Shown here: piece by piece, positions 1-14,382 of the stretch
Position numbering within the stretch: position 1 is the first letter of the stretch
How the letters are laid out: the number at the start of each line of letters is the position of its first letter
Assembly: GCA_965214705.1 (NCBI GenBank)
Contig: CBDCCI010000002.1
Span: 2,624,001 to 2,688,000, forward strand
Source of the DNA: Alphaproteobacteria bacterium
GTDB taxonomy: Bacteria > Pseudomonadota > Alphaproteobacteria > UBA828
Reading direction: 5' to 3'
DNA: 64,000 nt
The notes under the pieces: generated by a model
The model's database searches: none
What the model saw: only the letters and a program-made list of their open reading frames with translations
What the model was told of the DNA's origin: nothing
Translations under genes and position numbers: made by a program

Positions 1-124
1 ACGTCAAGTAAGGCTCATAAGCCCCTTGGCAATGCCTGTGCGAACGACCATGAGCGCCGTCAATGTGCAGACCGGGTGCGAGAGCGCCGGCTCAAGCAAC
101 GGTCCGGGGGCGTGGCGCGTGTTG

Positions 125-197
125 TTTCCCGGATTGATTGACGACGGATTTCCCGGGTTATTTCGGGTGACGGGCGCGCGTATTTCCCGGACTGATC
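125..197 (+). repeat. Three subterminal repeats (putative transposase-binding sites)
   Basis: TTTCCCGGATTGATT (125), TTTCCCGGGTTATTT (149), TTTCCCGGACTGATC (183). Related inverted copies at about 4436-4450, 4461-4477 and 4496-4508. Confidence 0.75.
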
Positions 198-441
198 GGT
201 CATTGCCGGAAGGGGGACAGGGTGCCGGGGTGTCGGACGGCCGTCGGCGCGTCAAGCCGCTGCGCGGCTCCTCCGCTTCGCTACGGCCCTTCGGGTGACC
301 CGCCGCCGTCCATCCGACGAAGTGCATCCATGGCCGTAAGCGGAGCTTTCGGCCACGGGCCGATCGCTCGACGCATTGTCGTTTTTTGAGCCCGAGAGGC
401 GCCTGGGGGGCGGTTCCGGCGGGCGGTTCCCGCTCGAACTC

Positions 442-1509
442 CTAGGGATGGGCGGAACCGGGAGGCGGGAACCGCGAGGCGTCCGGATGGCGGCTGCCAT
501 TGGCGGCGTCGTCCGGCGCGGCGTTCTCGGTTTCGCCTGTGACGAGGCTGTAATGTCCCTCGGCGTCGTGCCGGATGCGTCCCTCACGGACGAGCTTTCG
601 CAGGATGGCGCCCACGGTCTTGTGCCGGGTTGCGGCGCGCTCCCGGATCTGGCGCTGGGAGAGCGGCGCGTCGGCTTCGGCGAGGGCCTGGAGGATGCGC
701 CGTTCAGGGGTTTCGGGCCGCGGCGCGGCATCGCCGGTCTCGACCTGGCGGAGGCGCAGCGCGGGCCCCTTGCCGTCGTCGGCGAGCTCGATTTCGATGT
801 CGTTGAGGCCGGGGGCGGCGCGATGCTCGACGGTCATGAGGATCTGCCTGTCTCGCCGGCGCAGGTACAGATTGGAGTCGCCCCAGGCGTGCAGCTCGCT
901 GCTTCCGCGCAGGGCCTGGCCCGGCCTGGCGGCGCCGCTCTTTCGTGCGTGGTGGACCAGCAGCACGGCGGTCTCGAAGCGGCGCTGGACGTCGCGCAGG
1001 AAGCCGAGGATGGGGGCGACCTCGGCGACGGTGTTCTCGTCGATGCCGTGCAGGCGGACCAGGGGGTCGAGGACCACGAGGCGGGGCCGGACGCGTTCCA
1101 CCGTTTGCACCAGGCGCTGACGGTCCGCGCGATGATCGAGGCGCAGCGCGGGCACGTCGATGACCGCGATGTCGAGGGCGTCGAAGCGGGCGCCGGCGGC
1201 GCTCGCGATACCCTGGAGGCGGGCACGCACGATGTGCCCGGCGTCCTCGGCGGCGAACAGCAGGACCGGGCCCGGCCGGTCGGCGGCGAAGCGGCGCAGG
1301 CATGGGACGCCGGCGGCGACCGCGACGGCGATGTCGAGCGCGAGGAAGGACTTGCCGCACTTCGGCTCGCCGCCGACGATGCCGACGGCCTGGCGCCCCC
1401 AGAGCCCGTCGATGAGCCACTGCTGCTGGCGCGGCCGGTCCTCCAGCTCGATCGGCGCCCGCGTCGGGAAGCCGGTCATCGCCATGCCCTCGGTGGCGAC
1501 GCTGTTCAT
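442..1509 (-). CDS. RecA-fold AAA_25 / RepA-like (SF4 helicase-like) ATPase with C-terminal winged HTH
   Basis: Walker A GEPKCGKS, Walker B LVVLDP, LLVHH and LRGSS motifs; C-terminal ILQALAEADAPLSQRQI... wHTH-like segment. ATG at 1509 overlaps the upstream stop (ATGA). Confidence 0.8.
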   Translation of the reverse strand: MNSVATEGMAMTGFPTRAPIELEDRPRQQQWLIDGLWGRQAVGIVGGEPKCGKSFLALDIAVAVAAGVPCLRRFAADRPGPVLLFAAEDAGHIVRARLQGIASAAGARFDALDIAVIDVPALRLDHRADRQRLVQTVERVRPRLVVLDPLVRLHGIDENTVAEVAPILGFLRDVQRRFETAVLLVHHARKSGAARPGQALRGSSELHAWGDSNLYLRRRDRQILMTVEHRAAPGLNDIEIELADDGKGPALRLRQVETGDAAPRPETPERRILQALAEADAPLSQRQIRERAATRHKTVGAILRKLVREGRIRHDAEGHYSLVTGETENAAPDDAANGSRHPDASRFPPPGSAHP

Positions 1510-2306
1510 GGCTGAAGCTCGTCGAGGGCGGTCTGGATGTGGTTGGCGTTGACGGTCTTTGCCTTGTCGAGGGCGGCGGCCGACAGCGCGTAATGGGCGA
1601 TGCGGTTGATCTGGCGCGGCAGGCCGCGGGTGCCCTGGAACAGGGCCTCGACGGCGGCCTCCTCGAACAGCGGCAGCTCGCATCCGGCGAGCCGGAGGCG
1701 GTGGGTCAGATAGGCGTCGACCTCGTCGCGTTCGAGGCCGGTGAGGTGGTGCCGCACGACGAGGCGCTGGCTGAGGGACTCATGCACCGCCATGGACAGC
1801 CGCCGCCTGAGCTCAGTGAGGCCGACCAGGATGAGGCACATGCGGTTCTCGGAGTCCATGGCGAAGTTGGTCAGCAGGCGGAGATCCTCCAACACGTCGT
1901 TGCGCAGATGGTGGGCCTCGTCGACGACGAGGACGGGGAGCTGCCTGGCTTCCTTGGCGAGGCGGGAGATCTCGGTCCTGATCGCGTGATGGGCCGAGGA
2001 GCGGGATCGCTCGACGGTCAGCCCGAGCTCCCATCCGATGGCCTTGTAGGTGTCGAGCACGTTGCCGGTGGTGAGCGAGACGTAATGGACGCGATACAGC
2101 CCCGGGTGGAGCTGGTCGGTGAGGTGGCGGCAGACGGTGGTCTTGCCGGCGCCGACCTCGCCGGTGAGCAGGCCGATGCCCTTGAGCTCGATGAGGTGGC
2201 CGAGCCTGGCCTCGGCCTCGCGCCGGGCCGAGGATTCGAACAGCTCGTCGGTCTGTGCCGGGGTCTCGAAGGGCATGCCGGTCAGGGCGAAGTGGCGCTG
2301 GTACAT
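1506..2306 (-). CDS. ExeA/TnsC/TniB-like AAA+ transposition ATPase
   Basis: Start MYQRHFAL; Walker A GEVGAGKT, Walker B VLVVDEAH, LSQRL, GLPRQIN. Start overlaps the transposase stop (TGATG). Confidence 0.88.
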   Translation of the reverse strand: MYQRHFALTGMPFETPAQTDELFESSARREAEARLGHLIELKGIGLLTGEVGAGKTTVCRHLTDQLHPGLYRVHYVSLTTGNVLDTYKAIGWELGLTVERSRSSAHHAIRTEISRLAKEARQLPVLVVDEAHHLRNDVLEDLRLLTNFAMDSENRMCLILVGLTELRRRLSMAVHESLSQRLVVRHHLTGLERDEVDAYLTHRLRLAGCELPLFEEAAVEALFQGTRGLPRQINRIAHYALSAAALDKAKTVNANHIQTALDELQP

Positions 2307-3625
2307 CAGTCGTCCTCCTTGAACTTGCGCATCTTGAGCGGCGAGGGCGGCGGCTCGGGCGCCGGGTCGTCGGGTTCGATCTTCTTGGAGTAGTGGCCGC
2401 GCTTCACCGCGGTGTTGGCATAGGCGTCGAGGCGGGTTGCCTGGCCGGCGGGCTTTCCGTCGCAGACCACGTCGAGCGGCCGGCCGGGCGGTGCCTCCGG
2501 GTCGTAGCGCAGCACGACCCTTTCCCCGACCAGGATGGCGTCGACCTCGTAGACGCGACCGTTGAGGCTGACGGTGCGGTCCTTGTGGACCAGCCGCCTG
2601 GCCTCGAAGAGGAAGATGTCGTCGAGGTCGAGCGTGGCGTCGGGGTAGCGGACCGCGACCGAGGCCAACGCCCACTGCTCCAGCGGCGTGCGTCCCTCGA
2701 GGCCGCGATGCGGGGTGTCGTGATACTCGCCCTCGATCCACGCCCAGAGGCTGCGGTTGAGCGTCTGGAGGCTGTCCAGGACCGGCGCATCGAGATGGGC
2801 GAGCCAGCCGGCGCGAAGCGTTCTGAACCAGCGTTCGATCTTGCCCTTTCCGGCTGGCTGATACGGCCTCGCATGCACCAGCACGACGCCCAGTCTTGCG
2901 CAGATCAGGGCGAGATGGCGGGAGCGGTAGGCGGCGCCGTTGTCGACATAAAGGCGCTGCGGCAGCCCGCGGCGGATCAGCGCATTCTTGAACACGGGCA
3001 GGAAGGCCTGGACGTTCTCGGCCGTGGCGAAGGCGGCGAAGGGCACGACCCGGGTGGCGTCGTCGATGAATGCGATGAGGTAGGTCTTGCGCCGGCTCCG
3101 GCCGAAGCGGACCTTGGGCCCGTGCATGACGTCGCTCATCCACAGCTCGCCGGCCTCGCGGAAGGCGAAGCGGCGGCGGTCGGCGCCGTCCGGCGGCTTC
3201 CTGTCGAACAGCCCCTCGCGGCTCAGCAGCCGGTGCACGGTCGAGGGCGCGAGCGGGTGATCGATGCCCTCCTCGGCGGCCGCGCGGATGATCGCGCGCA
3301 CCGGCCAGGCCGGGTTGTCGGCCTTCAGCGCGACCAGGCGCTCGGCGACCTCGGGCGGCAGCCGCCGGGGCTTGCCCCGGTCGGTGCGCGGCTTGGGGTA
3401 GAGCGCCTCGAAGCCGCCATCGCGGTAGTGCCTGATCCACTCCCGCATGGTGTCGGCGGCAACCCGGGTCCGGTCGGTTCCGGGGATGGCATAGGGCTGG
3501 CTGGCCTTCTCGCGAAGCCTGTCGCCGACGCCCTTCGTGCCCAGCGGCAGATGCACCAGATCGGCGATCACGCCGTATCGGAAGAGCGCGATCGCCTGGC
3601 GGAGGTCGTCATCCGATTCCTTCAT
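2306..3625 (-). CDS. DDE integrase/transposase (rve core with Mu-transposase-like C-terminus)
   Basis: N-terminal HTH, WMSD...YVDNG...GKIER catalytic triad, C-terminal RLVHKDRTVSLNGRVYEV beta-barrel. Confidence 0.92.
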   Translation of the reverse strand: MKESDDDLRQAIALFRYGVIADLVHLPLGTKGVGDRLREKASQPYAIPGTDRTRVAADTMREWIRHYRDGGFEALYPKPRTDRGKPRRLPPEVAERLVALKADNPAWPVRAIIRAAAEEGIDHPLAPSTVHRLLSREGLFDRKPPDGADRRRFAFREAGELWMSDVMHGPKVRFGRSRRKTYLIAFIDDATRVVPFAAFATAENVQAFLPVFKNALIRRGLPQRLYVDNGAAYRSRHLALICARLGVVLVHARPYQPAGKGKIERWFRTLRAGWLAHLDAPVLDSLQTLNRSLWAWIEGEYHDTPHRGLEGRTPLEQWALASVAVRYPDATLDLDDIFLFEARRLVHKDRTVSLNGRVYEVDAILVGERVVLRYDPEAPPGRPLDVVCDGKPAGQATRLDAYANTAVKRGHYSKKIEPDDPAPEPPPSPLKMRKFKEDD

Positions 3626-3669
3626 GTCACGGTCCTCGTTCGCGGCCCCTCGGGCCCGGGACCATGACG

Positions 3670-4305
3670 CTAGGCGCCTGGCGGGGGCGGATCAGGCCCC
3701 ATCGAGTGTTGGAGGCCCGGCTTGCGACTCCTCGCGCCGGTTCCGTGGGGTTGGAAGCCCAACGGCGCGGGCAGCGCCTGCAGCTGCCCGGCGACCAGGC
3801 CGCGCAGCGCCATCAATGCGCGGTTGCTTTTGAGCTTGTCGCGCACCGCGCTCATGGTGGCGGCGCAGCCCGCGAGCTTGTCGGGGATCAGGCCGATAAC
3901 GCGGGAAAGGACATCGTGGACGAGATCCACCCGCCGGCGCAGCCAGCGCAGCGCGCCGGGAAGCTCGATGGCGTCATCGTCCTCGGGGCGGCGCACCTCG
4001 TTCGCCGCCTCCTCCTGGCTCTTCGCGCCCTCGGCCGCGACGACAACCGCTTCCAGATCGTCGAGCGTGCCCGGCAGCCGCGCCGCCAGGCAGTCGGCCA
4101 GAAGGCTGATCGTCGTATGGCTCTCGCGGCAATACCAGCGAGGAACCCTCGCGCCGGGCGGGGTCTTCCGCCCGTAGGTGCCGTGGCTTCCCACGGAACA
4201 TCCGCCGTGCGGGTGATTCGGGCAGCGCTCAAGCCTTGCGTCGCGCCACGCCTCGGCCCTAACGTATTCCTCGCCGGTAAGCCCCGTTTCGTAGCGAAGC
4301 TGCAC
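3670..4305 (-). CDS. Cys/His-rich hypothetical protein, first gene of the transposon
   Basis: 211-aa ORF with CPNHPHGGC...HGTY...WYCRESH (possible Zn ribbon) and a helical C-terminus; co-oriented 44 bp upstream of the transposase. Confidence 0.75.
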   Translation of the reverse strand: MQLRYETGLTGEEYVRAEAWRDARLERCPNHPHGGCSVGSHGTYGRKTPPGARVPRWYCRESHTTISLLADCLAARLPGTLDDLEAVVVAAEGAKSQEEAANEVRRPEDDDAIELPGALRWLRRRVDLVHDVLSRVIGLIPDKLAGCAATMSAVRDKLKSNRALMALRGLVAGQLQALPAPLGFQPHGTGARSRKPGLQHSMGPDPPPPGA

Positions 4306-4949
4306 CGGCCATGGCCCGGCGGGAGTCAGCCCGCGCGGGCCTCTTTCTTGTTCCTCGTCAGCCCGAGACTACGGTCCCGCCCCGGCACCGCCAACCGCCG
4401 AAGCCGCGATGCTCGCCGATCTCCCGCTTTCCCCCACCATCCGGGGAAATCCCTGAACCGATCAATGTGAGAAAAATCGCCGACCCGCTATCCGGCTAAA
4501 GCGGGAAACAACAGCGCGGACAATGGGCGTCTGTCGACGCAGTGGCGAGACGCATGGAAGGGCGTTGGCCAAGAGGGGAGAGTGGAGCGCGGGCGATGCC
4601 GGAGCGGAGCGACGCATCGCCCGGCGCGACACGATGCAGGAGGGGCCGATGCAGGAACAGAGCGCGATGGCGCGGAGCGCCGAGCGCGGGATGGCGAGCC
4701 GTGGCCGGCGCAACGCACTTTTAACTATAGGGGGAGGCGGCAGGGCATTCGGTGACGGTGCGCAGACCCGGGCCGAAGCGTCTAGCGTCACGACACTCGG
4801 GACTGGCGCGAACGACGAAGGCGCGCATGCGCCGAGTTGGGCGCGAGACCGGAGTGGATCGCGGCTCATCACAGGCTGAGGATTGGAGCGTGAGCAGCGG
4901 GGACGCGCAAGCGCCAAGCCGGAGGGCTTAGCGTCGATGCGCGACGTTG

Positions 4950-6076: not shown

Positions 6077-6310
6077 TCTTCGCCTTGCGGCGCTCCCGCT
6101 TCTGCTGGTCCTGCTGCTTTTGATCGCGGTCGATCTCGGCCTGGTCCCCCTTGAGGTCGGTCTCGATCTGCGCCGACAGCCGTTTCCTCTCGACCGCCGC
6201 GCCGGCGCGGCGGTCGAGGTGCTTCCTGAAGGTCTCGGGTTCAAGCCCGAAACAAGATGCCTCCCGCTCTCACGCCGCTCTTCGAAGAATCCCCGTCGTA
6301 GTTAATCCTA

Positions 6311-7529
6311 GTGTCATGTCACATACGATATGTCGCCCATTTCATGATAGCTTTCTCGTCGTCGCACGACGGCGAGGAGGCTGGCATGAAGCGTTACGTG
6401 GTGACTTTGGAGAAGGAGGAGCGGGACGAGCTCGCAGAGATCACGCGCAAGGGCTCTCATCAGTCACAGAAGGTGATCAACGCGCTGATCCTGCTCAACT
6501 GCGACGAAGGCGAGTTCAACGAGCACCGGGCGCACGGGGAGGCCATTGCGGAGATCCTGCGCATCAGTGCGCGCAAGGTGGAGCGGGTCAAGAAGCGTTT
6601 CGTCGAGGCGGGCATGGCGGCGGCGCTCGGTGGCCGGCAGGGTCGCCGTCCCAGCTACGTGCGCAAGGCCGACGGCGAGTTCGAGGCGCACTTGGTGGCG
6701 CTGAGCTGCGCCGAGCCGCCGGAGGGCCACTCGCAGTGGTCGCTGCGGTTGCTGGCGGACCGCATCGTGGAACTCGGCCACATCGACAGCGTGTCGCACG
6801 AGACGGTGCGCCGGGTGCTAAAAAAAACGCAATCAAGCCGTGGCGGCGCGTCGGCTGGGTGATTCCCCCACAGGGCAACGCGGACTTCGCCGCGGCGATG
6901 GAGAAGGTTCTCGACGTCTACCGGCGTCCCTACGATGCAGCCTTTCCGGTGGTGTGCATGGACGAGACGCCCCGGCAACTGATCGGCGAGACACGCGAAC
7001 CGGTTCCGGCAGCGCCGGGTCGGCCGGCGCGCGAAGACTACGAGTACCGACGTTGCGGAAGCTGCAACGTGTTCATGGCGACCGAACCCCTGGCCGGGCG
7101 GCGTATGACCAAGGTGACGGCGCGCAGAACCAAAACCGACTGGGCGCACTTCCTCAACGACATCGCCGAGCGCCACCCCCGCGCCAAGAGGATCACGCTT
7201 GTGATGGACAACCTGAACACCCACCGCCCCGGCGCCCTCTACGAGGCATTTCCGCCGGACCAGGCCAAGGCGCTGTGGGACCGCTTCGAGTTCGTCTACA
7301 CGCCCAAGCACGGCAGTTGGCTCAACGTCGCCGAGGTCGAGCTCAACGTCATGATCCGTCAGTGTCTCAACCGCCGCATCGCCTCCCTCGAAGTCCTGCG
7401 CGACGAGGTCGCGGCTTGGCAGGCGTCCCGAGACCGCATCCGGGGCAACGTCAACTGGCAGTTCACCACGGACGACGCACGGGTGAAGCTGAAACGCCTC
7501 TATCCGACAGTTGATGAATGACAGGACAC
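6311..7529 (+). mobile_element. IS630-family insertion sequence
   Basis: IR GTGTCATGTCA / TGACAGGACAC, flanked by TA at 6309-6310 and 7530-7531. Confidence 0.9.
6386..7521 (+). CDS. IS630 transposase (orfA/orfB joined by -1 frameshift at an A8 run near 6820-6827)
   Basis: OrfA MKRYVVTL...WSLRLLA...VSHETVRRVLKK; OrfB VVCMDE...VMDNLNTH...TPKHGSWLNVAEVE. Confidence 0.9.
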
Positions 7530-7629: not shown

Positions 7630-8487
7630 TCAGAGCTCCGGGCCAAGATACTTGTTGAAGAAGGCGATCATGCGACGCTGCGAATCGTGGCGTGCCCCAG
7701 CGTCGCCCATCACCGTGTGCATTTTTCCGCCGTCGCCCTCCACGTAGTACGGTCCTTTCATCGGCAGGTCGAAGGAATGGTGTGCGCGCGGATACACCTT
7801 CAACCTGAGGACGGGTTTGTGGCTGACCTGTTGAGCGATCTCGTGGAGATCCTTGCATCGGTCCGCCGGTGTCCAGTCATCCTTGCCGCCGACCAGAATC
7901 AGGACAGGACGTGCCAGGGAATGAGCCCAGCTCGACTCGCACCAGGGATAGTAGGCGACCAGCGCGGCAAACGTGCCCTGGCCCTTACGCGTGCGGGCAT
8001 TGATGTAACCTCCCTGTGCGAGTCGCGAGGCGGTTCCGCCGCCGAGCGACTGACCGACGTAACCGATGCGGTCTTCATCCACGAACGGCATCGCTGCCAA
8101 ACGGTCGAATGCGGCGTACGCGTCTCGGACCTGCACGGGATAGTAGGACAACGGATGCTGACATCCATCGGTGATGCGGCGCCGGTGGAAGCTGTCGATG
8201 ATCAGCGTGACGTATCCCTTCTTTTTCAACAGCTTGGCGTGTTGAAGCAGTCCGTGCCACACCGTCTGATGTTGCGTATCCCTCTCGGTACCGCCGCAGC
8301 CGTGCGTCAGTACGACGGCAGGAAAGGGACCCTCGCCGTCCGGTTTCGAGAGCAGGAATTGCGGTCCCGTGCTCTCCTCTGCGGTGGCGATCGAGATTGC
8401 CGTTCCCTGCAGCAGACACGCCGCGATGGCAAGCGTGACAACCGCGATCAAGGCGCCTGTGGCGCCATACCTGTTGGCAATTCTCAT
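7630..8487 (-). CDS. Secreted dienelactone hydrolase-family alpha/beta hydrolase
   Basis: Signal-like N-terminus, PAVVLTHGCGG, nucleophile elbow GQSLGG, DDWTP, YPRAHHSFD. Confidence 0.85.
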   Translation of the reverse strand: MRIANRYGATGALIAVVTLAIAACLLQGTAISIATAEESTGPQFLLSKPDGEGPFPAVVLTHGCGGTERDTQHQTVWHGLLQHAKLLKKKGYVTLIIDSFHRRRITDGCQHPLSYYPVQVRDAYAAFDRLAAMPFVDEDRIGYVGQSLGGGTASRLAQGGYINARTRKGQGTFAALVAYYPWCESSWAHSLARPVLILVGGKDDWTPADRCKDLHEIAQQVSHKPVLRLKVYPRAHHSFDLPMKGPYYVEGDGGKMHTVMGDAGARHDSQRRMIAFFNKYLGPEL

Positions 8488-8539
8488 CCTTGTCCCTCCG
8501 CGCCCGGCGCCGATGAGAGCAATGCCCCCGGCGAGCGGA

Positions 8540-8790
8540 CGTCGCCGCGTCGGGCCGGGATGCTTGTTGAAGAAAGCGATCATGCGCCGCTGCGAAATCG
8601 TTGCGCGCTCCAGCGCTCCCACTTCGCCGTATGAAACACGCGAGGGTAGCCTCGGCATGGTACGGCCCTTGCATGGACTTATCAAAGGACCGGTGGGCGC
8701 CCGGATACACCATCAACTCGACGACGGGTTTGTTGCTGGCCCGTTTGGCAATGTCGAGGAGCTTCTCGCATCGGTCCGTACCCCGCATCC
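8540..8790 (-). pseudogene. C-terminal relic of a paralogous dienelactone hydrolase
   Basis: DRCEKLLDIA...KPVVELMVYPGAHRSFD and (frameshifted) SQRRMIAFFNKH closely match the C-terminus of 7630-8487. Confidence 0.75.
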
Positions 8791-9345: not shown

Positions 9346-10206
9346 ATGTCTATCAGGCCGTTTCTGCTCATCGTGGCGCTATTCGCGTTGTCGGGCTTCG
9401 CTCAGCCTGGCTTGCACAACAGCACCAAGGTGTTCACCGATCCCTCGGACATGCGCTCATCCGATTGGTCGGACCCCGCAGAGATGGAACGGACGTGGCA
9501 AGCCGCCTTGGTCCGCATCCCGAAATCGCGTGGAAGCTTCGACAGCACGACTATGGCCGAGCTGGAGGAGGGCGCCCTCTCTCCTGTGGGTGTTTGGCCT
9601 ACGGTGATCTACATGCACGGCTGCACAGGGTTCTGGTCCGGCACAAAGACCCGGATCGATTTCCTGGCTCGCAACGGATACGCCGTCATTGCGCCGGCGA
9701 GCCTTGCCCGACTCAAGTACCCGCTGTCCTGTCGCCCGGCTACCCATCAAGGCGGCCTTTACCGCCCGACGCTCAAGATGCGCCAGAATGACGCTGGCTA
9801 TGCCATTGCGAAGGCCAAGACCCTTCCATGGGTCGACAGCTCGAACGTCTTCCTCATGGGGCTCAGCCAAGGGGGAATTACGACGGCAACGTTCTCATCT
9901 TCGCGCCGTGAGCATTCCCTTCGAGCGCGGATTGTTGAGGGCTGGACCTGCCACGCGGGCTGGACCGAATACGCTGGAGTAAACGCACCGGAATCCGAGC
10001 CTGTGCTGACCCTGGTGGGGGCCAAAGATCCGTGGTTCCAGAGTCACTGGAACCGGGGTTCGTGCGATCGTTTTCTCAGCAAGTCGAATGGAAGTCGCTC
10101 CGTGGTTTATTCGAAGGGACGCTTGAGCACTCGCCACGAACTCCTGGAGTCACGCACGGTTAAGAAAACAGTCTTCGATTTCTTGAAGAGACACCGGTCG
10201 CGCTAA
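9346..10206 (+). CDS. Secreted dienelactone hydrolase-like alpha/beta hydrolase
   Basis: Signal peptide, VIYMHGCTG, GLSQGG, GAKDPW, late His (TRHE). Confidence 0.8.
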   Translation: MSIRPFLLIVALFALSGFAQPGLHNSTKVFTDPSDMRSSDWSDPAEMERTWQAALVRIPKSRGSFDSTTMAELEEGALSPVGVWPTVIYMHGCTGFWSGTKTRIDFLARNGYAVIAPASLARLKYPLSCRPATHQGGLYRPTLKMRQNDAGYAIAKAKTLPWVDSSNVFLMGLSQGGITTATFSSSRREHSLRARIVEGWTCHAGWTEYAGVNAPESEPVLTLVGAKDPWFQSHWNRGSCDRFLSKSNGSRSVVYSKGRLSTRHELLESRTVKKTVFDFLKRHRSR

Positions 10207-10467
10207 ATTTGCGGCGGCCTTGCCAAGCCGTCTGTTCGAGTTCGCGGCTTCCGAGTCTGACCTAATCCGCATTTCTCACCACTGTTGTTAAACGCTCAGA
10301 TTGGACGTTGATTAGCGCGGTAATTCATTGATTTTGTTGGAGTATTTCTTAGCTGAGTGGGTTTTGCCATGTCAAGCCTTAGCACACATCACAACAGCTT
10401 CAGCTAGGCAAGACCTTTTTGTTATATTTCCGGGGGCAACAAAGCGCGCTTATCAACACATTGCCGG

Positions 10468-10735
10468 GCGCACGGCGGCGGGGGAATAGCAGGAAGCGGC
10501 GCTGACGCGCATCCGCAACGCGCTCGCCTTCCTGGTCGCGCTGAGGATGCGGGAGATGGTGCGCGGCGCCCGCGAGTACGAGCTGAAGGCGCTGCTGACG
10601 GACTCGTTCGGCGGGCGGGCTGCGGCGGCAACCGTGGAGCGTCTCAACGCGCATGGGTACGGAGGGCCTGGATCAGCCATGATCGAAGACTGCCCCGCGG
10701 GGGACGTCACATCGAGAGACCGCCGCGGTCGCGCG
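10468..10735 (+). repeat. Diverged direct repeat, copy 2
   Basis: Matches 5812-6076. Confidence 0.8.
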
Positions 10736-11252
10736 GCTGGCCTTGTCGGCGACCACCGGCAACTGCGCGCGGTCGAAGCCGACCGGCCCTTCGGCCTGCT
10801 GCAGGACGCCGGAATGCCCACAGCGACGCGGACCTGCGGGCTGCAGTCCTGCACGTGGTGACGGACGAGCCGCGTATGGCGGTGGAGGGGCTCGGCAACG
10901 GCGTTCTGGAGACGGAGAGCGACGATCTCAGCGGGAAGGCGTCACACCTCCAAGTCGGGTCGTAGGGACCACTATATCGGGATAATTCCGGCATATAGCG
11001 GGATATTGGTTGACCATACATGGGCTTAGCGGTCACCGGAGGCGTCTGGTGGTTCGCTCCGGCGAGGTGACCGCACCAATAGGTAAAGTCGAATCCGGCT
11101 TCGCATCGGGCCTGGGTGGCTCCTGCAAAGACCCGAGGCCTCGTCGTGCTGTGCGGCTTGAGCAGAGTCGGCCAATCGCCCTGCGGATCCGCCCCGGGGC
11201 TCACACCGGTCCACAGTTGACTCAATGAGCGGCCCAGCATACATATCGGGCC

Positions 11253-12286
11253 ATGCAAGTTGGCCTTCACCAGTTTCACGCCGACACGATCGAGTGGTTG
11301 AGCAAGGCGGTCCTGGAGGAGGGCCGCACTCGCAGTTCTCTTGCCCGCGATCTCTGCGCGCTGGAGGACTGGACCGGCGATCGGGGCGAGCACTGCCTTG
11401 CGTCGGCGCGCAAGGCTCTGCCGGTTCTGGCGGACAAGCTGGGGCTCGCGCTGCCGGCGGCGCGGGCGGCGTTCGGCCGGGGGCGTCGCGAGGGTGCGGC
11501 CATCGAAGCCTTCCCCGATCTCTCGCTTCGCTGTCGGCTCACGGATTTGGGCTCGGTGACGCTGGAGTTGGTCGACGGCGATGCCGAGCGGCGCCTGTGG
11601 CAAGCGATGATTGCAACGCACCACCCGCAGGGCTGGGCGCGGGCTCCGGGCGGGCAGCTGCGCTACTGGGTGCGTTCCTCGCTTCATGGCCGCCTCGGCG
11701 GCATCGGGTTTTGCGCCGCGAGCTGGCACCAGAAGGCGCGCGACGACTTTATCGGCTGGTCGGCGGACGCGCGGGCTTTGAACCTGCCGCTGGCGATCAA
11801 CAACCATCGCTTCCTGCTTCTGCCCGGCGTGCGCGTCCACGGTCTGGCCTCGCGGGTGCTGGAGCTGGCGGCCGGCCGCGTGGCGGGAGACTGGGAGGCG
11901 GCGTACACCGCGCGCCCGGTCCTGGCCTACAGCTATGTCGGCCCCGAGCATGCCGGCACCTGCTACCGGGCGGCGGGCTGGCGGTGCTGTCCCCAGCACA
12001 CCTCGGGCCAGCCGCCGGGGTCCGCCGCCGGGGCGGCGCGGACGGTGTGGATGAAGCCGCTGGCGGCGGATTGGCAGGCCATCTTGTGCGCCGAGCCGGC
12101 GCGGGATATCCGTGCGGCGCCGGCGTTGCACATGGACGAGGACACGGACTGGGCGGGGCGGGAATATGCGCGCAGCACGCATCCTGACGGCCGGGTCCGC
12201 GATCGGATCGAGCGCATGGGACGGGCGTGGCTGGAGCGCCCGGGGGCCGCGATCCCGGCGATCTTTCCGGCCAAGCCGGATCGCAA
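11253..12286 (+). pseudogene. N-terminal part of DUF4338 (DruA-like)-Tn5 transposase fusion
   Basis: LWQAMIATHH...QLRYWV...AASWHQKARDDFIGW...NNHRFLLLP...LASRVL...GTCYRAAGW, followed by a Tn5-type DNA-binding segment DWAGREY...DGRVRDRI. Confidence 0.82.
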
Positions 12287-14382
12287 CCCATCTTTGCCAT
12301 TTTGGCGCGCGCCTGCGACCTAAGTAGTTGCGATGATGGGCTGATTTTCTGGCCCATCTGGGATTATGGCACTACGTTTGTGCGCTCATCGCGACACTCC
12401 CGGGAGCACCGCCCGGCGCCTGTGGGGATCCACCGTGAGGCCCGCCGCCTGCGCGATGACGCGCGCCTCGGCGTCGGGTTGAGCATCCTGGCGGATGACG
12501 ATGCGGTTTCCGTCCACCTCCCGGATGGTGGAGGTGAGACGCACCCAGCCCGCGAGCTTGTCGCGGATCGTACTCCAGCGGTCATGCAAGCCGTGCGCCG
12601 CCAGACGGGTTCGCAGCAGATGAACCGCGTGGTAGGCGAGGACGGCGATGAACAGGTGGGCGGCGATGCGCGAGGTCTTGGAGTGCCAGACCGGGCGCAG
12701 GCCGATTTCGGATTTCAGGCTGCGGAAGGTGGCCTCGAGCTCTGTGAGCTTCCAGTAGGTTCGGACCACGGTTTCAAGATCCCACTCGACGTGGCTGGTG
12801 CGCAGCACATAGATGCCCGCTTGGCGGTCGCGCTCGGCATGGAGAGCGTTGCGCCTCCAGCGGACCGCACTGGCCCGCCCCTTCTCTCCGGGCTCGACCT
12901 CGATGTCGTACTGACGGTGGACGCGCCTGTACCTTTCCTTCAGCCGGCCCAGCTTCTCCATCACCTTGGTGAACTGCTTGATGTGGTTCTTCTTCGACAG
13001 CCCGCCATGCAGGGCGCGCAGGGCGTCCTCGAAGTTGTGACGCTGACGGGCGAGCACGGCCTCGTCCTTCTGCTGGCGCTCATGGCTCCAGACGCACAGG
13101 TGCGCTTCGTCGTCCCCTGCCGCGAGACGCCAGGCGCGGGCATCGTGGCCGGCCCGGGTTTCGAAGGCGGCATCGGCTTCGCGCCCGGGCGGCGCCGAGA
13201 CGCCGCGGCGAACGGTGATCCAGTGATAGCCGCCCGCCCGCAGCCAGGCGAGGTTGGCCTCGGTGGAGATGCCGGCGTCCATGATGACCGTGGGCCTGGG
13301 GGCGTTGCTGCCGCGCGCTTGGCATTCCAGCCGCCCGATGGCGTCGGCGAGAGTGGCCGGCTCGGAGATGTTGCCGGGCAGGATCTCGCTGTGCTGCGGA
13401 AAGCCGGCCTGGTTCAGCGACAGGGCCAGGGTCACGATCGGACAATCGTCACGCCTCTGCTTCGAGCGCCCGAAGCGGGCCAGCGCGGAGCTGGGCCGTC
13501 CGGTCATATGGGTGTTGGTCAGGTCGAAGAAGACGATGGTGTCGGGGATGCCGAAGAGATCGCGCTCCCGGGCGCACAGCGCCTCTTCAAGCGCCGCGCG
13601 GTGACGCCACAAGAGGTCGCCGATGCGGTAGAGCTTGCTGAGCGTGAGCGACTTGCCGCTGTCGACATCGAGCAACTCCAGGGTCGCGCTGTTCGCGCTC
13701 AGCCAGCGGAAGGCCTCGCGCTCGCTGGAGGGATGGATCATGCGCGCGACCACCAGTGCCGCCGCGATGCGTGCGTCGCGCTCACTTGCGCCCAGCCTCT
13801 CCAGCGTCTCGATGAAGCGAAGGTCGTCAAGCGCGGCGAGAGCCAGGCGCTCGCAGCCCACCGAGCGGACCTGTTCGTGGGAGAGGCTATCGAGACGGAC
13901 CGTGGCCAGGTCGCTCTCGTCCCCGGGCCGCGACGCGCCGAGATCGCGGGCGTGAAGCCGCCGTACGACGTCCTCGGCGACGGGGCGCAAGGCGGCATCC
14001 GGCTCCAGCAGCGGCTCGCTGCCGGCGAGAAGGGTTTCGATCAGAAGCGCCAATTCGCGCCATTGCTCCTCGGGCACACCGAAGTCGGCGCCGAGATTGA
14101 GGAGCGTGACCTGGCGCACCCTTCCGCCGATGCGTTCGCTGCGCACGAGGCGGTAGGTGGCATAGCGCTCGCCACCGTCTCCGCGACCGGTGAGGGTTTT
14201 GCGAATGAACATGGCGGCAGGGTCACGGACAGTTTGCGGACTGTCAAGGAGCGCCGGCCCACAGACCAAAGATTATGGCACTACAATGGACTTCCCAAAA
14301 CACAATCCAACAAAATCAGTGCCTTAGATCCCAAAGGCTACCCAAAATCAGGCCTTCGGGACCGAAAAGTGGCAAAGATGGG
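12287..14382 (-). mobile_element. IS1634-family insertion sequence
   Basis: IR CCCATCTTTGCCA(T/C)TTT at both ends; 4-bp TSD GCAA (12283-12286, 14383-14386). Confidence 0.88.
12386..14212 (-). CDS. IS1634-family transposase
   Basis: MFIRKT...YRLVRSERIGGRVRQVTLLNLG; FFDLTN, FGRSK, GNISE, VIMDAG, EATFRSLKSEIGLRPVWH. Confidence 0.9.
   Translation of the reverse strand: MFIRKTLTGRGDGGERYATYRLVRSERIGGRVRQVTLLNLGADFGVPEEQWRELALLIETLLAGSEPLLEPDAALRPVAEDVVRRLHARDLGASRPGDESDLATVRLDSLSHEQVRSVGCERLALAALDDLRFIETLERLGASERDARIAAALVVARMIHPSSEREAFRWLSANSATLELLDVDSGKSLTLSKLYRIGDLLWRHRAALEEALCARERDLFGIPDTIVFFDLTNTHMTGRPSSALARFGRSKQRRDDCPIVTLALSLNQAGFPQHSEILPGNISEPATLADAIGRLECQARGSNAPRPTVIMDAGISTEANLAWLRAGGYHWITVRRGVSAPPGREADAAFETRAGHDARAWRLAAGDDEAHLCVWSHERQQKDEAVLARQRHNFEDALRALHGGLSKKNHIKQFTKVMEKLGRLKERYRRVHRQYDIEVEPGEKGRASAVRWRRNALHAERDRQAGIYVLRTSHVEWDLETVVRTYWKLTELEATFRSLKSEIGLRPVWHSKTSRIAAHLFIAVLAYHAVHLLRTRLAAHGLHDRWSTIRDKLAGWVRLTSTIREVDGNRIVIRQDAQPDAEARVIAQAAGLTVDPHRRRAVLPGVSR

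Follow-up and report, generated by a model that had tools for sequence, protein, structure and literature searches.

DNA transposition systems that pair a transposase with an AAA+ ATPase, represented by phage Mu, Tn7 with its CRISPR-guided relatives, and IS21, are those in which the regulation of target choice is best understood, and work is under way to engineer them for genome insertion. A stretch of 64,000 nucleotides from an Alphaproteobacteria bacterium of the lineage UBA828 (contig CBDCCI010000002.1, positions 2,624,001 to 2,688,000), hereafter called the window, carries at its positions 120-4513 a four-gene transposon that a sequence-only reading had placed among the transposase-plus-AAA+ elements of the Mu/Tn7/Tn5053/IS21 clade, and domain, PHROG and PDB matches bear out a transposon of the Mu/Tn7/Tn552/IS21 kind. 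The sole named relative found is Tn6049 of Cupriavidus metallidurans CH34, which is also known from Pseudomonas aeruginosa pHS87a. Tn6049 is 3.5 kb long, is present in 12 copies in CH34 and always carries the 'gspA' ATPase gene (PMC2864759). Its TGT inverted repeats are imperfect and 12 bp long, its direct repeat is 4 bp long (PMC4739549), and its module 'could not be categorized' (PMC6210171). Tn6049 was reached through a distant match on pMOL30 of CH34, with 27% identity over the full length of the transposase (E 7e-28) and 28% identity of the ATPase (E 7e-13). The two elements share 12-bp TGT inverted repeats, and a 4-bp duplication also occurs in the window family. They also share a layout of four open reading frames (ORFs) with overlapping stop and start codons, consisting of a Cys-rich ORF1, an IS481-type DDE transposase, an AAA_22 'GspA' ATPase and a fourth ORF. 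However, ORF1 on pMOL30 encodes 181 amino acids (aa) and the fourth ORF 90 aa, as against 355 aa for the RepA-like gene of the window, and neither ORF1 nor the fourth ORF shows detectable homology to its window counterpart (hhalign, 0.2% and 2.9%, respectively).

The order of a DUF6431 gene, a DDE transposase gene and an AAA ATPase gene is found again on plasmids from Cupriavidus necator (N-1 pBB2), Rhodococcus opacus (pKNR) and Geobacillus (pGt35). The transposases of these modules are 38-42% identical to that of the window, their ORF1 products are DUF6431 proteins by Pfam, they have no AAA_25 gene, and their annotation is generic. Literature searches found no paper describing the DUF6431-linked group or its helicase-bearing form, and the passages searched of two Tn7 surveys (PMC8649781 and PMC10293859) do not mention the family; the supplements of these surveys may list such elements. 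The family is widespread and barely described, and the window element is distinguished by a helicase in the swappable slot of this Tn6049-like/DUF6431 group. The earlier impression of a poorly characterised family holds, but a distant named relative with an analogous four-ORF layout does exist, whose module is uncategorised in the literature.

Boundaries, copies and insertion sites

The transposon extends from T120 to A4513 (4,394 bp), and these ends are common to three copies in the same genome. The left terminal inverted repeat (IR), TGTTGTTTCCCG, is a perfect 12-bp repeat on the plus strand that begins with TG (positions 120-131), and the right terminal IR on the minus strand (positions 4502-4513) is its exact reverse complement and ends with CA. 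TGTTGT is conserved across every related element examined. The target-site duplication (TSD) GCGCG flanks the element at positions 115-119 on the left and 4514-4518 on the right, as seen in the sequence and in an empty-site contig of run X5, one of the public runs, which were examined as contigs. This single contig, with a depth of 3, joins window position 114 to position 4514 and skips 4,399 bases, five letters fitting on either side. All genes lie on the minus strand in the order 3670-4305 (Cys/His protein), 2306-3625 (transposase), 1506-2306 (AAA_22 ATPase) and 442-1509 (AAA_25 RepA-like protein), and ATGA stop/start overlaps at 2306 and at 1506-1509 link the last three. The ORF list holds no further ORF inside the transposon. 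A promoter scan found none, and the terminator-like sites, four in all, do not exceed twice the number expected by chance. Contigs of the RNA-library run X15 cover all four genes, which is not proof of transcription. The boundaries, the TG...CA ends, the perfect IR, the GCGCG duplication and the four co-oriented genes that had been read from the sequence are all upheld by these data and by the three copies.

Three direct subterminal repeats with the consensus ATTTCCCGGATTG and at most 3 mismatches lie on the plus strand at the left end (positions 124-136, 148-160 and 182-194; 124-194 overall). On the right, ATTTCCCCGGATG on the minus strand (positions 4437-4450, 3 mismatches) is one locus that was reported as two overlapping matches. 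A scan of the whole window with ATTTCCCGGATTG, allowing up to 3 mismatches, returned 11 matches against 10.5 expected by chance, so that only their clustering at the ends is notable. With the right terminal IR counted beside the locus at 4437-4450, the transposon has about three end sites on the left and about two on the right; the earlier count of about three repeats per end is right for the left end but not for the right one. The left-end repeats are found at the same offsets in diverged elements of the genomes G009, G020 and G008, which also keep the right-end repeat, and the repeats are presumed to be transposase-binding sites.

The genome that contains the window (7.9 Mb, 3 contigs) carries three copies of the transposon at different places, two of them identical and one with 2 substitutions, flanked by the TSDs GCGCG, CGGGG and CCGT. 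In addition to these, it contains a four-gene relative with 81% identity (4,553 bp, duplication CCGCC), a three-gene relative in two copies, and several fragments. When every full match was fetched from three sister genomes, 61 loci in four genomes, the own genome included, became available for examination. Both ends are present at 59 of the 61 loci, and no copy with different boundaries was found among them. The complete copies in the sister genomes comprise 29 of 4,380 bp, 18 of 4,621 bp and 9 of 4,386 bp, and copies within a genome are 100% identical except for two with extra DNA and one with two substitutions. Of the 59 two-ended copies, 33 have a TSD of 5 bp, 17 one of 4 bp and 3 one of 6 bp, the other 6 having 0-1 bp, and so a matched duplication of 4-6 bp surrounds a single copy in 53 of 59 cases. 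Single copies flanked by 4-5-bp duplications are simple insertions. The 5-bp duplication that had been assigned to the element is correct for the window copy, but it is not a strict rule of the family, in which both 4-bp and 5-bp duplications occur. How often the 4-bp form is found varies by element variant (12/29 in G009 and 1/18 in G020), and the stagger of the cut may be a property of the transposase variant. Two of the six copies without a duplication, which lie about 40 kb apart in inverted orientation on contig C4 of G020 (L069 and L070), have reciprocally exchanged flanks (GAGGG and CCCCG), and such a swap is what recombination between two copies leaves behind when it inverts a segment.

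Copy 3 of the own genome (C1:2616643-2621036) interrupts the reverse-transcriptase ORF of a group II intron, which has several paralogues in the same genome that are 91-94% identical and uninterrupted at that point. The contexts of the insertions are varied and include this intron ORF and the vicinity of other insertion sequences. When the sites are aligned on their TSDs, G is found at position 4 in 26/36 and at position 5 in 19/36, and C at position 1 in 16/36 and at position 2 in 18/36, against a baseline of 34-35% G and C in the flanks. The target preference is a weak CCNGG-like bias and nothing more; therefore, no dedicated site selector is needed to account for the insertions seen. The comparison with other copies and empty sites that had been proposed as a check is provided by these loci, by the empty-site contig, by the uninterrupted paralogous site and by the target bias. 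Identical copies with intact ends and TSDs bear out the recent insertion that had been suggested. The element at 120-4513 is an autonomous, recently active DDE transposon with exact boundaries.

The own genome is rich in identical repeats. A segment of about 1.03 kb to the left of the window copy (L001:1-1030) has about 25 perfect or near-perfect copies, and a 630-bp stretch near copy 2, in the right flank of L002, has about 45 copies in this genome. Immediately to the right of the transposon, one ORF (positions 6151-7521) carries a DDE_3 (IS630-type) transposase domain and another (positions 7630-8685) belongs to the dienelactone-hydrolase family.

Core proteins and distribution of the family

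The transposase (positions 2306-3625, minus strand, 439 aa) consists of an HTH_32 domain, an rve core and a Mu-transposase C-terminal domain (PF09299 at 3.3e-6). The catalytic residues are D165, D228 and E264, of which D228 and E264 are separated by 35 residues, and 15/15 family transposases keep all three (alignment A4). The best family model is the NCBIfam IS481 model NF033577, which gives 214.8 bits and remains below its cutoff of 224, and the IS21 model gives 40.3 bits against a cutoff of 160. The transposase matches the Mu-type phage family phrog_310 at 2.5e-44, its best PDB relatives are TnsB chains (7svw, 6e-8, residues 220-377), and it matches the PADLOC family TnsB_V-K at 1.3e-9, although the IS481 model scores far higher. 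The AAA_22 ATPase (positions 1506-2306, minus strand, 266 aa) is of the MuB/ExeA/TniB type (PF13401 at 7e-26). It scores 165 bits with TIGR03015, the ExeA/PEP-CTERM ATPase model, under the cutoff, and matches phrog_296, annotated as 'DNA transposition protein', at 3e-27; its sole PDB sequence match is MuB (8xvb, 8.8e-4), and Pfam gives no IstB match. All four genes are under purifying selection, and the dN/dS ratio of the transposase is 0.19-0.36.

The element resembles phage Mu in its MuA/MuB-type PHROGs, its Mu C-terminal domain, the MuB match in the PDB, its TG/CA ends, its 5-bp duplication and a weak palindromic target preference. Unlike Mu, it consists of four genes in 4.4 kb without phage genes, its 439-aa transposase has an IS481-like core, and it carries an additional zinc-ribbon protein and a helicase. 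With Tn7, Tn5053 and Tn552 it shares an AAA+ partner, end-repeat arrays, TnsB as the nearest solved relative and the 5-bp duplication, which is 4 or 5 bp in the window family. It differs from them in that it has no TnsA, TniQ/TnsD, resolvase or cargo, and its transposase shares only about 21% identity with the Tn552-type transposases of Staphylococcus. In agreement with the sequence-only reading, Pfam, NCBIfam and PADLOC find no TnsA, TniQ/TnsD, resolvase or Cas protein among the four proteins; Pfam and NCBIfam find no recombinase domain in any ORF of the transposon, and PADLOC gives no defence family for any of the four proteins except the TnsB match. The resemblance to IS481 lies in the best-scoring core model and in the TGT ends, whereas the score under the cutoff and the four genes in 4.4 kb differ from it, an IS481 element being a single ORF of about 1-1.3 kb. 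IS21 likewise combines an rve-type transposase with an AAA+ helper, but the ATPase of the window element is of the AAA_22 type and not of the IstB type.

The Cys/His protein (positions 3670-4305, minus strand, 211 aa) has no direct Pfam or NCBIfam match, DUF6431 (PF20020) being absent even at E<=10, and pairwise BLASTP with DUF6431 proteins is not significant. Profile comparison, however, aligns 44 relatives of the Cys/His protein with the Geobacillus DUF6431 protein at 97.2% probability (E 4.6e-11), and 9 of these 44 relatives match DUF6431 weakly on their own (best 2.8e-4). By this comparison, the protein is classed as a divergent DUF6431 protein made of a zinc ribbon and helices. Its gene is a conserved core gene of a cross-phylum three-gene module. 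Its relatives number 1,326 at 90% clustering, with 968 representatives at 50% clustering. The AlphaFold (AF2) model has a pLDDT of 93 and a pTM of 0.84 and finds no PDB fold match at E<=0.001, none being TniQ/TnsD-like. The probable role of this protein is that of a DNA-binding accessory factor or regulator acting together with the transposase. A database protein, P0173 (638 aa, a single cluster), in which the Cys/His protein is fused to the transposase, hints at such joint action; the fusion may be real or a read-through artefact.

The Cys/His gene is present in 11 of the 41 genomes searched, the own genome included, and in 9 of 20 other genomes of the same genus. At E<=1e-10 the Cys/His family was not found in any of 400 other genomes sampled evenly across the phylum, which is not proof of its absence, and a search of plasmid DNA with the transposon gave two 40-bp matches only. 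Close copies occur in metagenome-assembled genome (MAG) records titled Alpha- and Gammaproteobacteria, Acidimicrobiales, Dehalococcoidia, Acidobacteria, Gemmatimonadetes and a cyanobacterium, and near-identical sequence is present in runs labelled sponge, coral and marine metagenomes (11 studies). Binning errors could account for some of the phylum labels. The near-identity across these MAG phyla and runs points to recent horizontal spread. In another locus, two family members stand head to tail (L140:6001-9833 and 10102-12621), and the second, with 45-60% protein identity, represents a further sublineage.

The fourth slot and its non-coding neighbours

The last gene encodes an AAA_25 RepA-like ATPase/helicase (positions 442-1509, minus strand, 355 aa; PF13481 at 5e-37) whose C-terminal part has a winged helix (residues 269-313). 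Its sole PDB match is the RSF1010 RepA helicase (1g8y, 9.5e-9), and the alignment retains GKS, AED, VLDxL, HHAxK and RGSS, which we take to be helicase motifs, so that the RepA-like assignment made from the sequence holds. The five motifs align with those of RSF1010 RepA, but the AAA_25 protein differs from RepA in its added winged helix, in its transposon setting and in having no partner primase or initiator in the element. The protein also matches phage primase/helicase PHROGs. Its dN/dS ratio of 0.21-0.31 indicates a constraint similar to that on the transposase. It is present in elements with transposases 75-93% identical to that of the window, in MAGs labelled as several phyla, and a search of the plasmid collection gave three distant matches only. 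In the database protein P0355 (597 aa), the AAA_22 ATPase is fused to the AAA_25 protein, which is either a real fusion or a read-through artefact.

A scan of one genome per species found 390 stretches that encode a relative of the Cys/His protein, and 26 of these loci were annotated. Four-gene forms with AAA_25 and three-gene forms both occur among the 26. The three-gene forms are compact and multi-copy, with 9 copies of 3,411 bp and 4 copies of 3,427 bp, the latter with 5-bp duplications in 4/4. They carry an ORF of 65-77 aa directly after the ATPase gene, also with an ATGA overlap; the 'three-gene' elements are therefore not truly three-gene, since a small fourth ORF occupies the slot. The slot is never empty in the forms examined, and the transposase tree requires at least two switches between its two fillings. 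The fourth slot is swappable, holding either the AAA_25 helicase or a small protein. The Cys/His and RepA-like genes had been singled out as the other genes of the element, and both are present; the former, however, belongs to the conserved DUF6431 core and is not an oddity, and the latter is not universal.

The small fourth-slot protein is acidic and has the C-terminal pattern QLxLFPELDxPF, with QL.LF in 17/21 and the D.PF end in 20/21 sequences, and 36 database relatives. QLxLF resembles the sliding-clamp-binding pentapeptide, and the D.PF end resembles the acidic tip of the single-stranded DNA-binding protein (SSB); the SSB encoded in locus L169 ends with DDNEIPF. In the two three-gene relatives of the own genome (L005:1294-1512, which is C1:473513-473731, and C1:456899-457117), the fourth protein is 73 aa long and ends with QLPLFPELDTPF. 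The Cupriavidus N-1 element has a small fourth ORF that is homologous to that of the sister elements. Of these two three-gene copies (L005 and L006), one has 175 additional bp in the stretch from the Cys/His gene to the right end, and the other has no matched duplication.

A structured non-coding block lies between the left-end repeats and the stop codon of the AAA_25 gene (positions 228-396, about 170 nt). It forms one hairpin followed by a three-way junction with a covarying closing helix. Its conservation exceeds that of the surrounding coding regions, and it is kept in 5 diverged four-gene elements. Pairing is possible in 86.7% of cells, as against 29-39% in slid-partner controls, and the covariation score is reached by 1 of 500 shuffles; the structure tested was taken from the fold of the window itself, which favours this structure. 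The closing outer helix differs in sequence between lineages and covaries, and Rfam gives no match at E<=1 on positions 1-4700. Outside the transposon, the block is found in five further genomes of the class, at six loci (L168:1501-1669, L169:1501-1606, L170, L171, L172 and L174). An IS110-family transposase gene lies about 180 bp from the block at three of these six loci. This proximity raised the idea that the block is the bridge RNA of an IS110-family element, which was not adopted because the strand slightly preferred by the wobble pattern is not that of the transposase gene but the opposite one, and because two copies are solitary. At the edge of the block, a terminator-like hairpin with a T-run lies on the plus strand, opposite to the genes (positions 369-390), and its T-run is not conserved in the sister elements.

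A GGTTCC/GGAACC palindrome spans the stop codon of the AAA_25 gene (positions 409-481). It is present in 11/13 four-gene elements and in 0/6 three-gene elements, and as RNA it folds with -41.5 kcal/mol (z = -2.78). The palindrome is a candidate site for the winged helix or a putative terminator. These features lead to a tentative and rather doubtful hypothesis that the position after the MuB-like ATPase gene is a swappable replisome-recruitment slot, which would be filled either by a RepA-type helicase with its own DNA site or by an adaptor of about 70 aa that mimics a clamp-binding motif and an SSB tail, and that the structured block would have a function, as RNA or as DNA, and be common to this and other mobile elements.

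Proposed transposition pathway and significance of the family

The best overall explanation, to which we give a probability of roughly 55%, is that the element is an autonomous DDE transposon with a core of a DUF6431 protein, an IS481-like transposase and a MuB-type ATPase, that its movement depends on replication, and that the fourth-slot protein recruits the replication machinery. The pathway is deduced from the protein families. The transposase would bind to the terminal and subterminal repeats and cut the 3' ends at TG/CA, and these ends would be joined 4-5 bp apart into target DNA captured by the MuB-like ATPase. The movement would include a replication-dependent step, either copy-out-paste-in in the style of IS3 and IS481 or, failing that, target-primed replication in the style of Mu. 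Such a step appears most likely because an rve-type enzyme cuts 3' ends only, because TnsA and a resolvase are missing and because the copies multiply while keeping matched duplications. Since the duplications are matched in 53/59 copies, copy-out-paste-in would be favoured over the Mu style. The RepA-like hexameric helicase or the small protein with clamp and SSB motifs would then bring the replication machinery to the transposition intermediate.

Several points weigh against this explanation. No circle junction was found in the contigs of the public runs, which cannot show rare forms. The subterminal repeat arrays and the MuB-like ATPase are features of Mu, Tn7 and Tn552 and not of IS3 and IS481, which weakens copy-out-paste-in. 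The three-gene forms multiply without the helicase, and so the helicase is dispensable for the family and may itself be a passenger. For the small ORF, the clamp-binding and SSB-tail readings are drawn from motif resemblance, its homologue in Cupriavidus N-1 has no QLxLF, and the small ORF of Tn6049 is not detectably homologous to that of the slot. The role assigned to the DUF6431 protein is a guess about a protein that has no fold relative in the PDB, and the P0173 fusion, known from a single cluster, may be an artefact.

A Mu-like replicative pathway is the first alternative, which we regard as improbable though worth weighing. Both 3' ends would be joined to the target to form a forked (Shapiro) intermediate, and the helicase or the small adaptor would load at the fork and start replication through the element. 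It would thereby replace the host restart machinery, which phage Mu uses at the fork, and host recombination would resolve the product. The strong matches to phrog_310 and phrog_296, MuB as the sole PDB sequence match of the ATPase and the Mu-transposase C-terminal domain all fit such a pathway, as do the 5-bp duplications, the end-repeat arrays and the absence of TnsA to free the 5' ends. However, there is no resolvase, and the catalytic core agrees best with the IS481 model. Moreover, intramolecular replicative events should leave copies that have no matched duplication, yet 53/59 copies have one. The pair of copies with exchanged flanks in G020 marks an inversion and counts in favour of this pathway, but it is equally explained by ordinary recombination between identical copies.

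Equally improbable, in our estimate, is that the AAA_25 gene with its palindrome, often together with the structured block, was captured from another mobile element and has no role in transposition, the minimal machine being the three core genes. The three-gene forms indeed reach several copies with 5-bp duplications (4/4 in one genome; 9 copies in another), the content of the slot has switched at least twice on the transposase tree, and the structured block also stands alone in five other genomes. But the start of the AAA_25 gene overlaps the ATPase stop in ATGA, exactly like that of the small ORF in the sister elements, and its dN/dS equals that of the core genes. Moreover, the gene has been carried along across elements with 75-93%-identical transposases under several phylum labels, has no PADLOC defence-family match and sits in a slot that is never empty in the forms examined.

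It is unlikely that the fourth-slot or DUF6431 protein is a target selector like TniQ, TnsD or TnsE, which would direct the ATPase towards replication forks or some structure in the DNA. The slot follows the ATPase gene, which is the position of TniQ/TnsD in Tn7-like elements; the small ORF has a clamp-like motif, and TnsE uses the sliding clamp; and the DUF6431 protein has a zinc ribbon, like TniQ. Against such steering, the insertion sites have nothing in common beyond the weak CCNGG-like bias, their contexts are varied, from the intron ORF to the neighbourhood of other insertion sequences, and the fold search found no TniQ/TnsD-like structure. An ordinary single-gene insertion sequence of the IS481 family beside unrelated genes can be practically discounted despite the TGT ends and the 214.8 bits with the best NCBIfam model, because that score is under the cutoff of 224, the gene order recurs across phyla, and each copy of the repeated unit includes all four genes, so that the copy boundaries refute it.

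The window family is a very compact and very active branch of the transposase-plus-AAA+ systems, with elements of 3.4-4.6 kb and up to 29 identical copies per genome. It is set apart by having no known selector, by a sole named member that is unclassified, by a zinc-ribbon partner without a PDB fold match and by a slot in which a replicative-type helicase alternates with a putative replisome adaptor. If the replisome-recruitment reading of this slot is true, the family would be, to our knowledge, the first of DDE transposons to bring along a replication factor of its own for the step of transposition that involves replication. The family offers a direct route to the question of how an rve-type transposon that has neither TnsA nor a resolvase finishes its cycle and involves host replication. 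Its influence on the shape of its host genomes is also a major one, and one inversion between copies has been observed in them.

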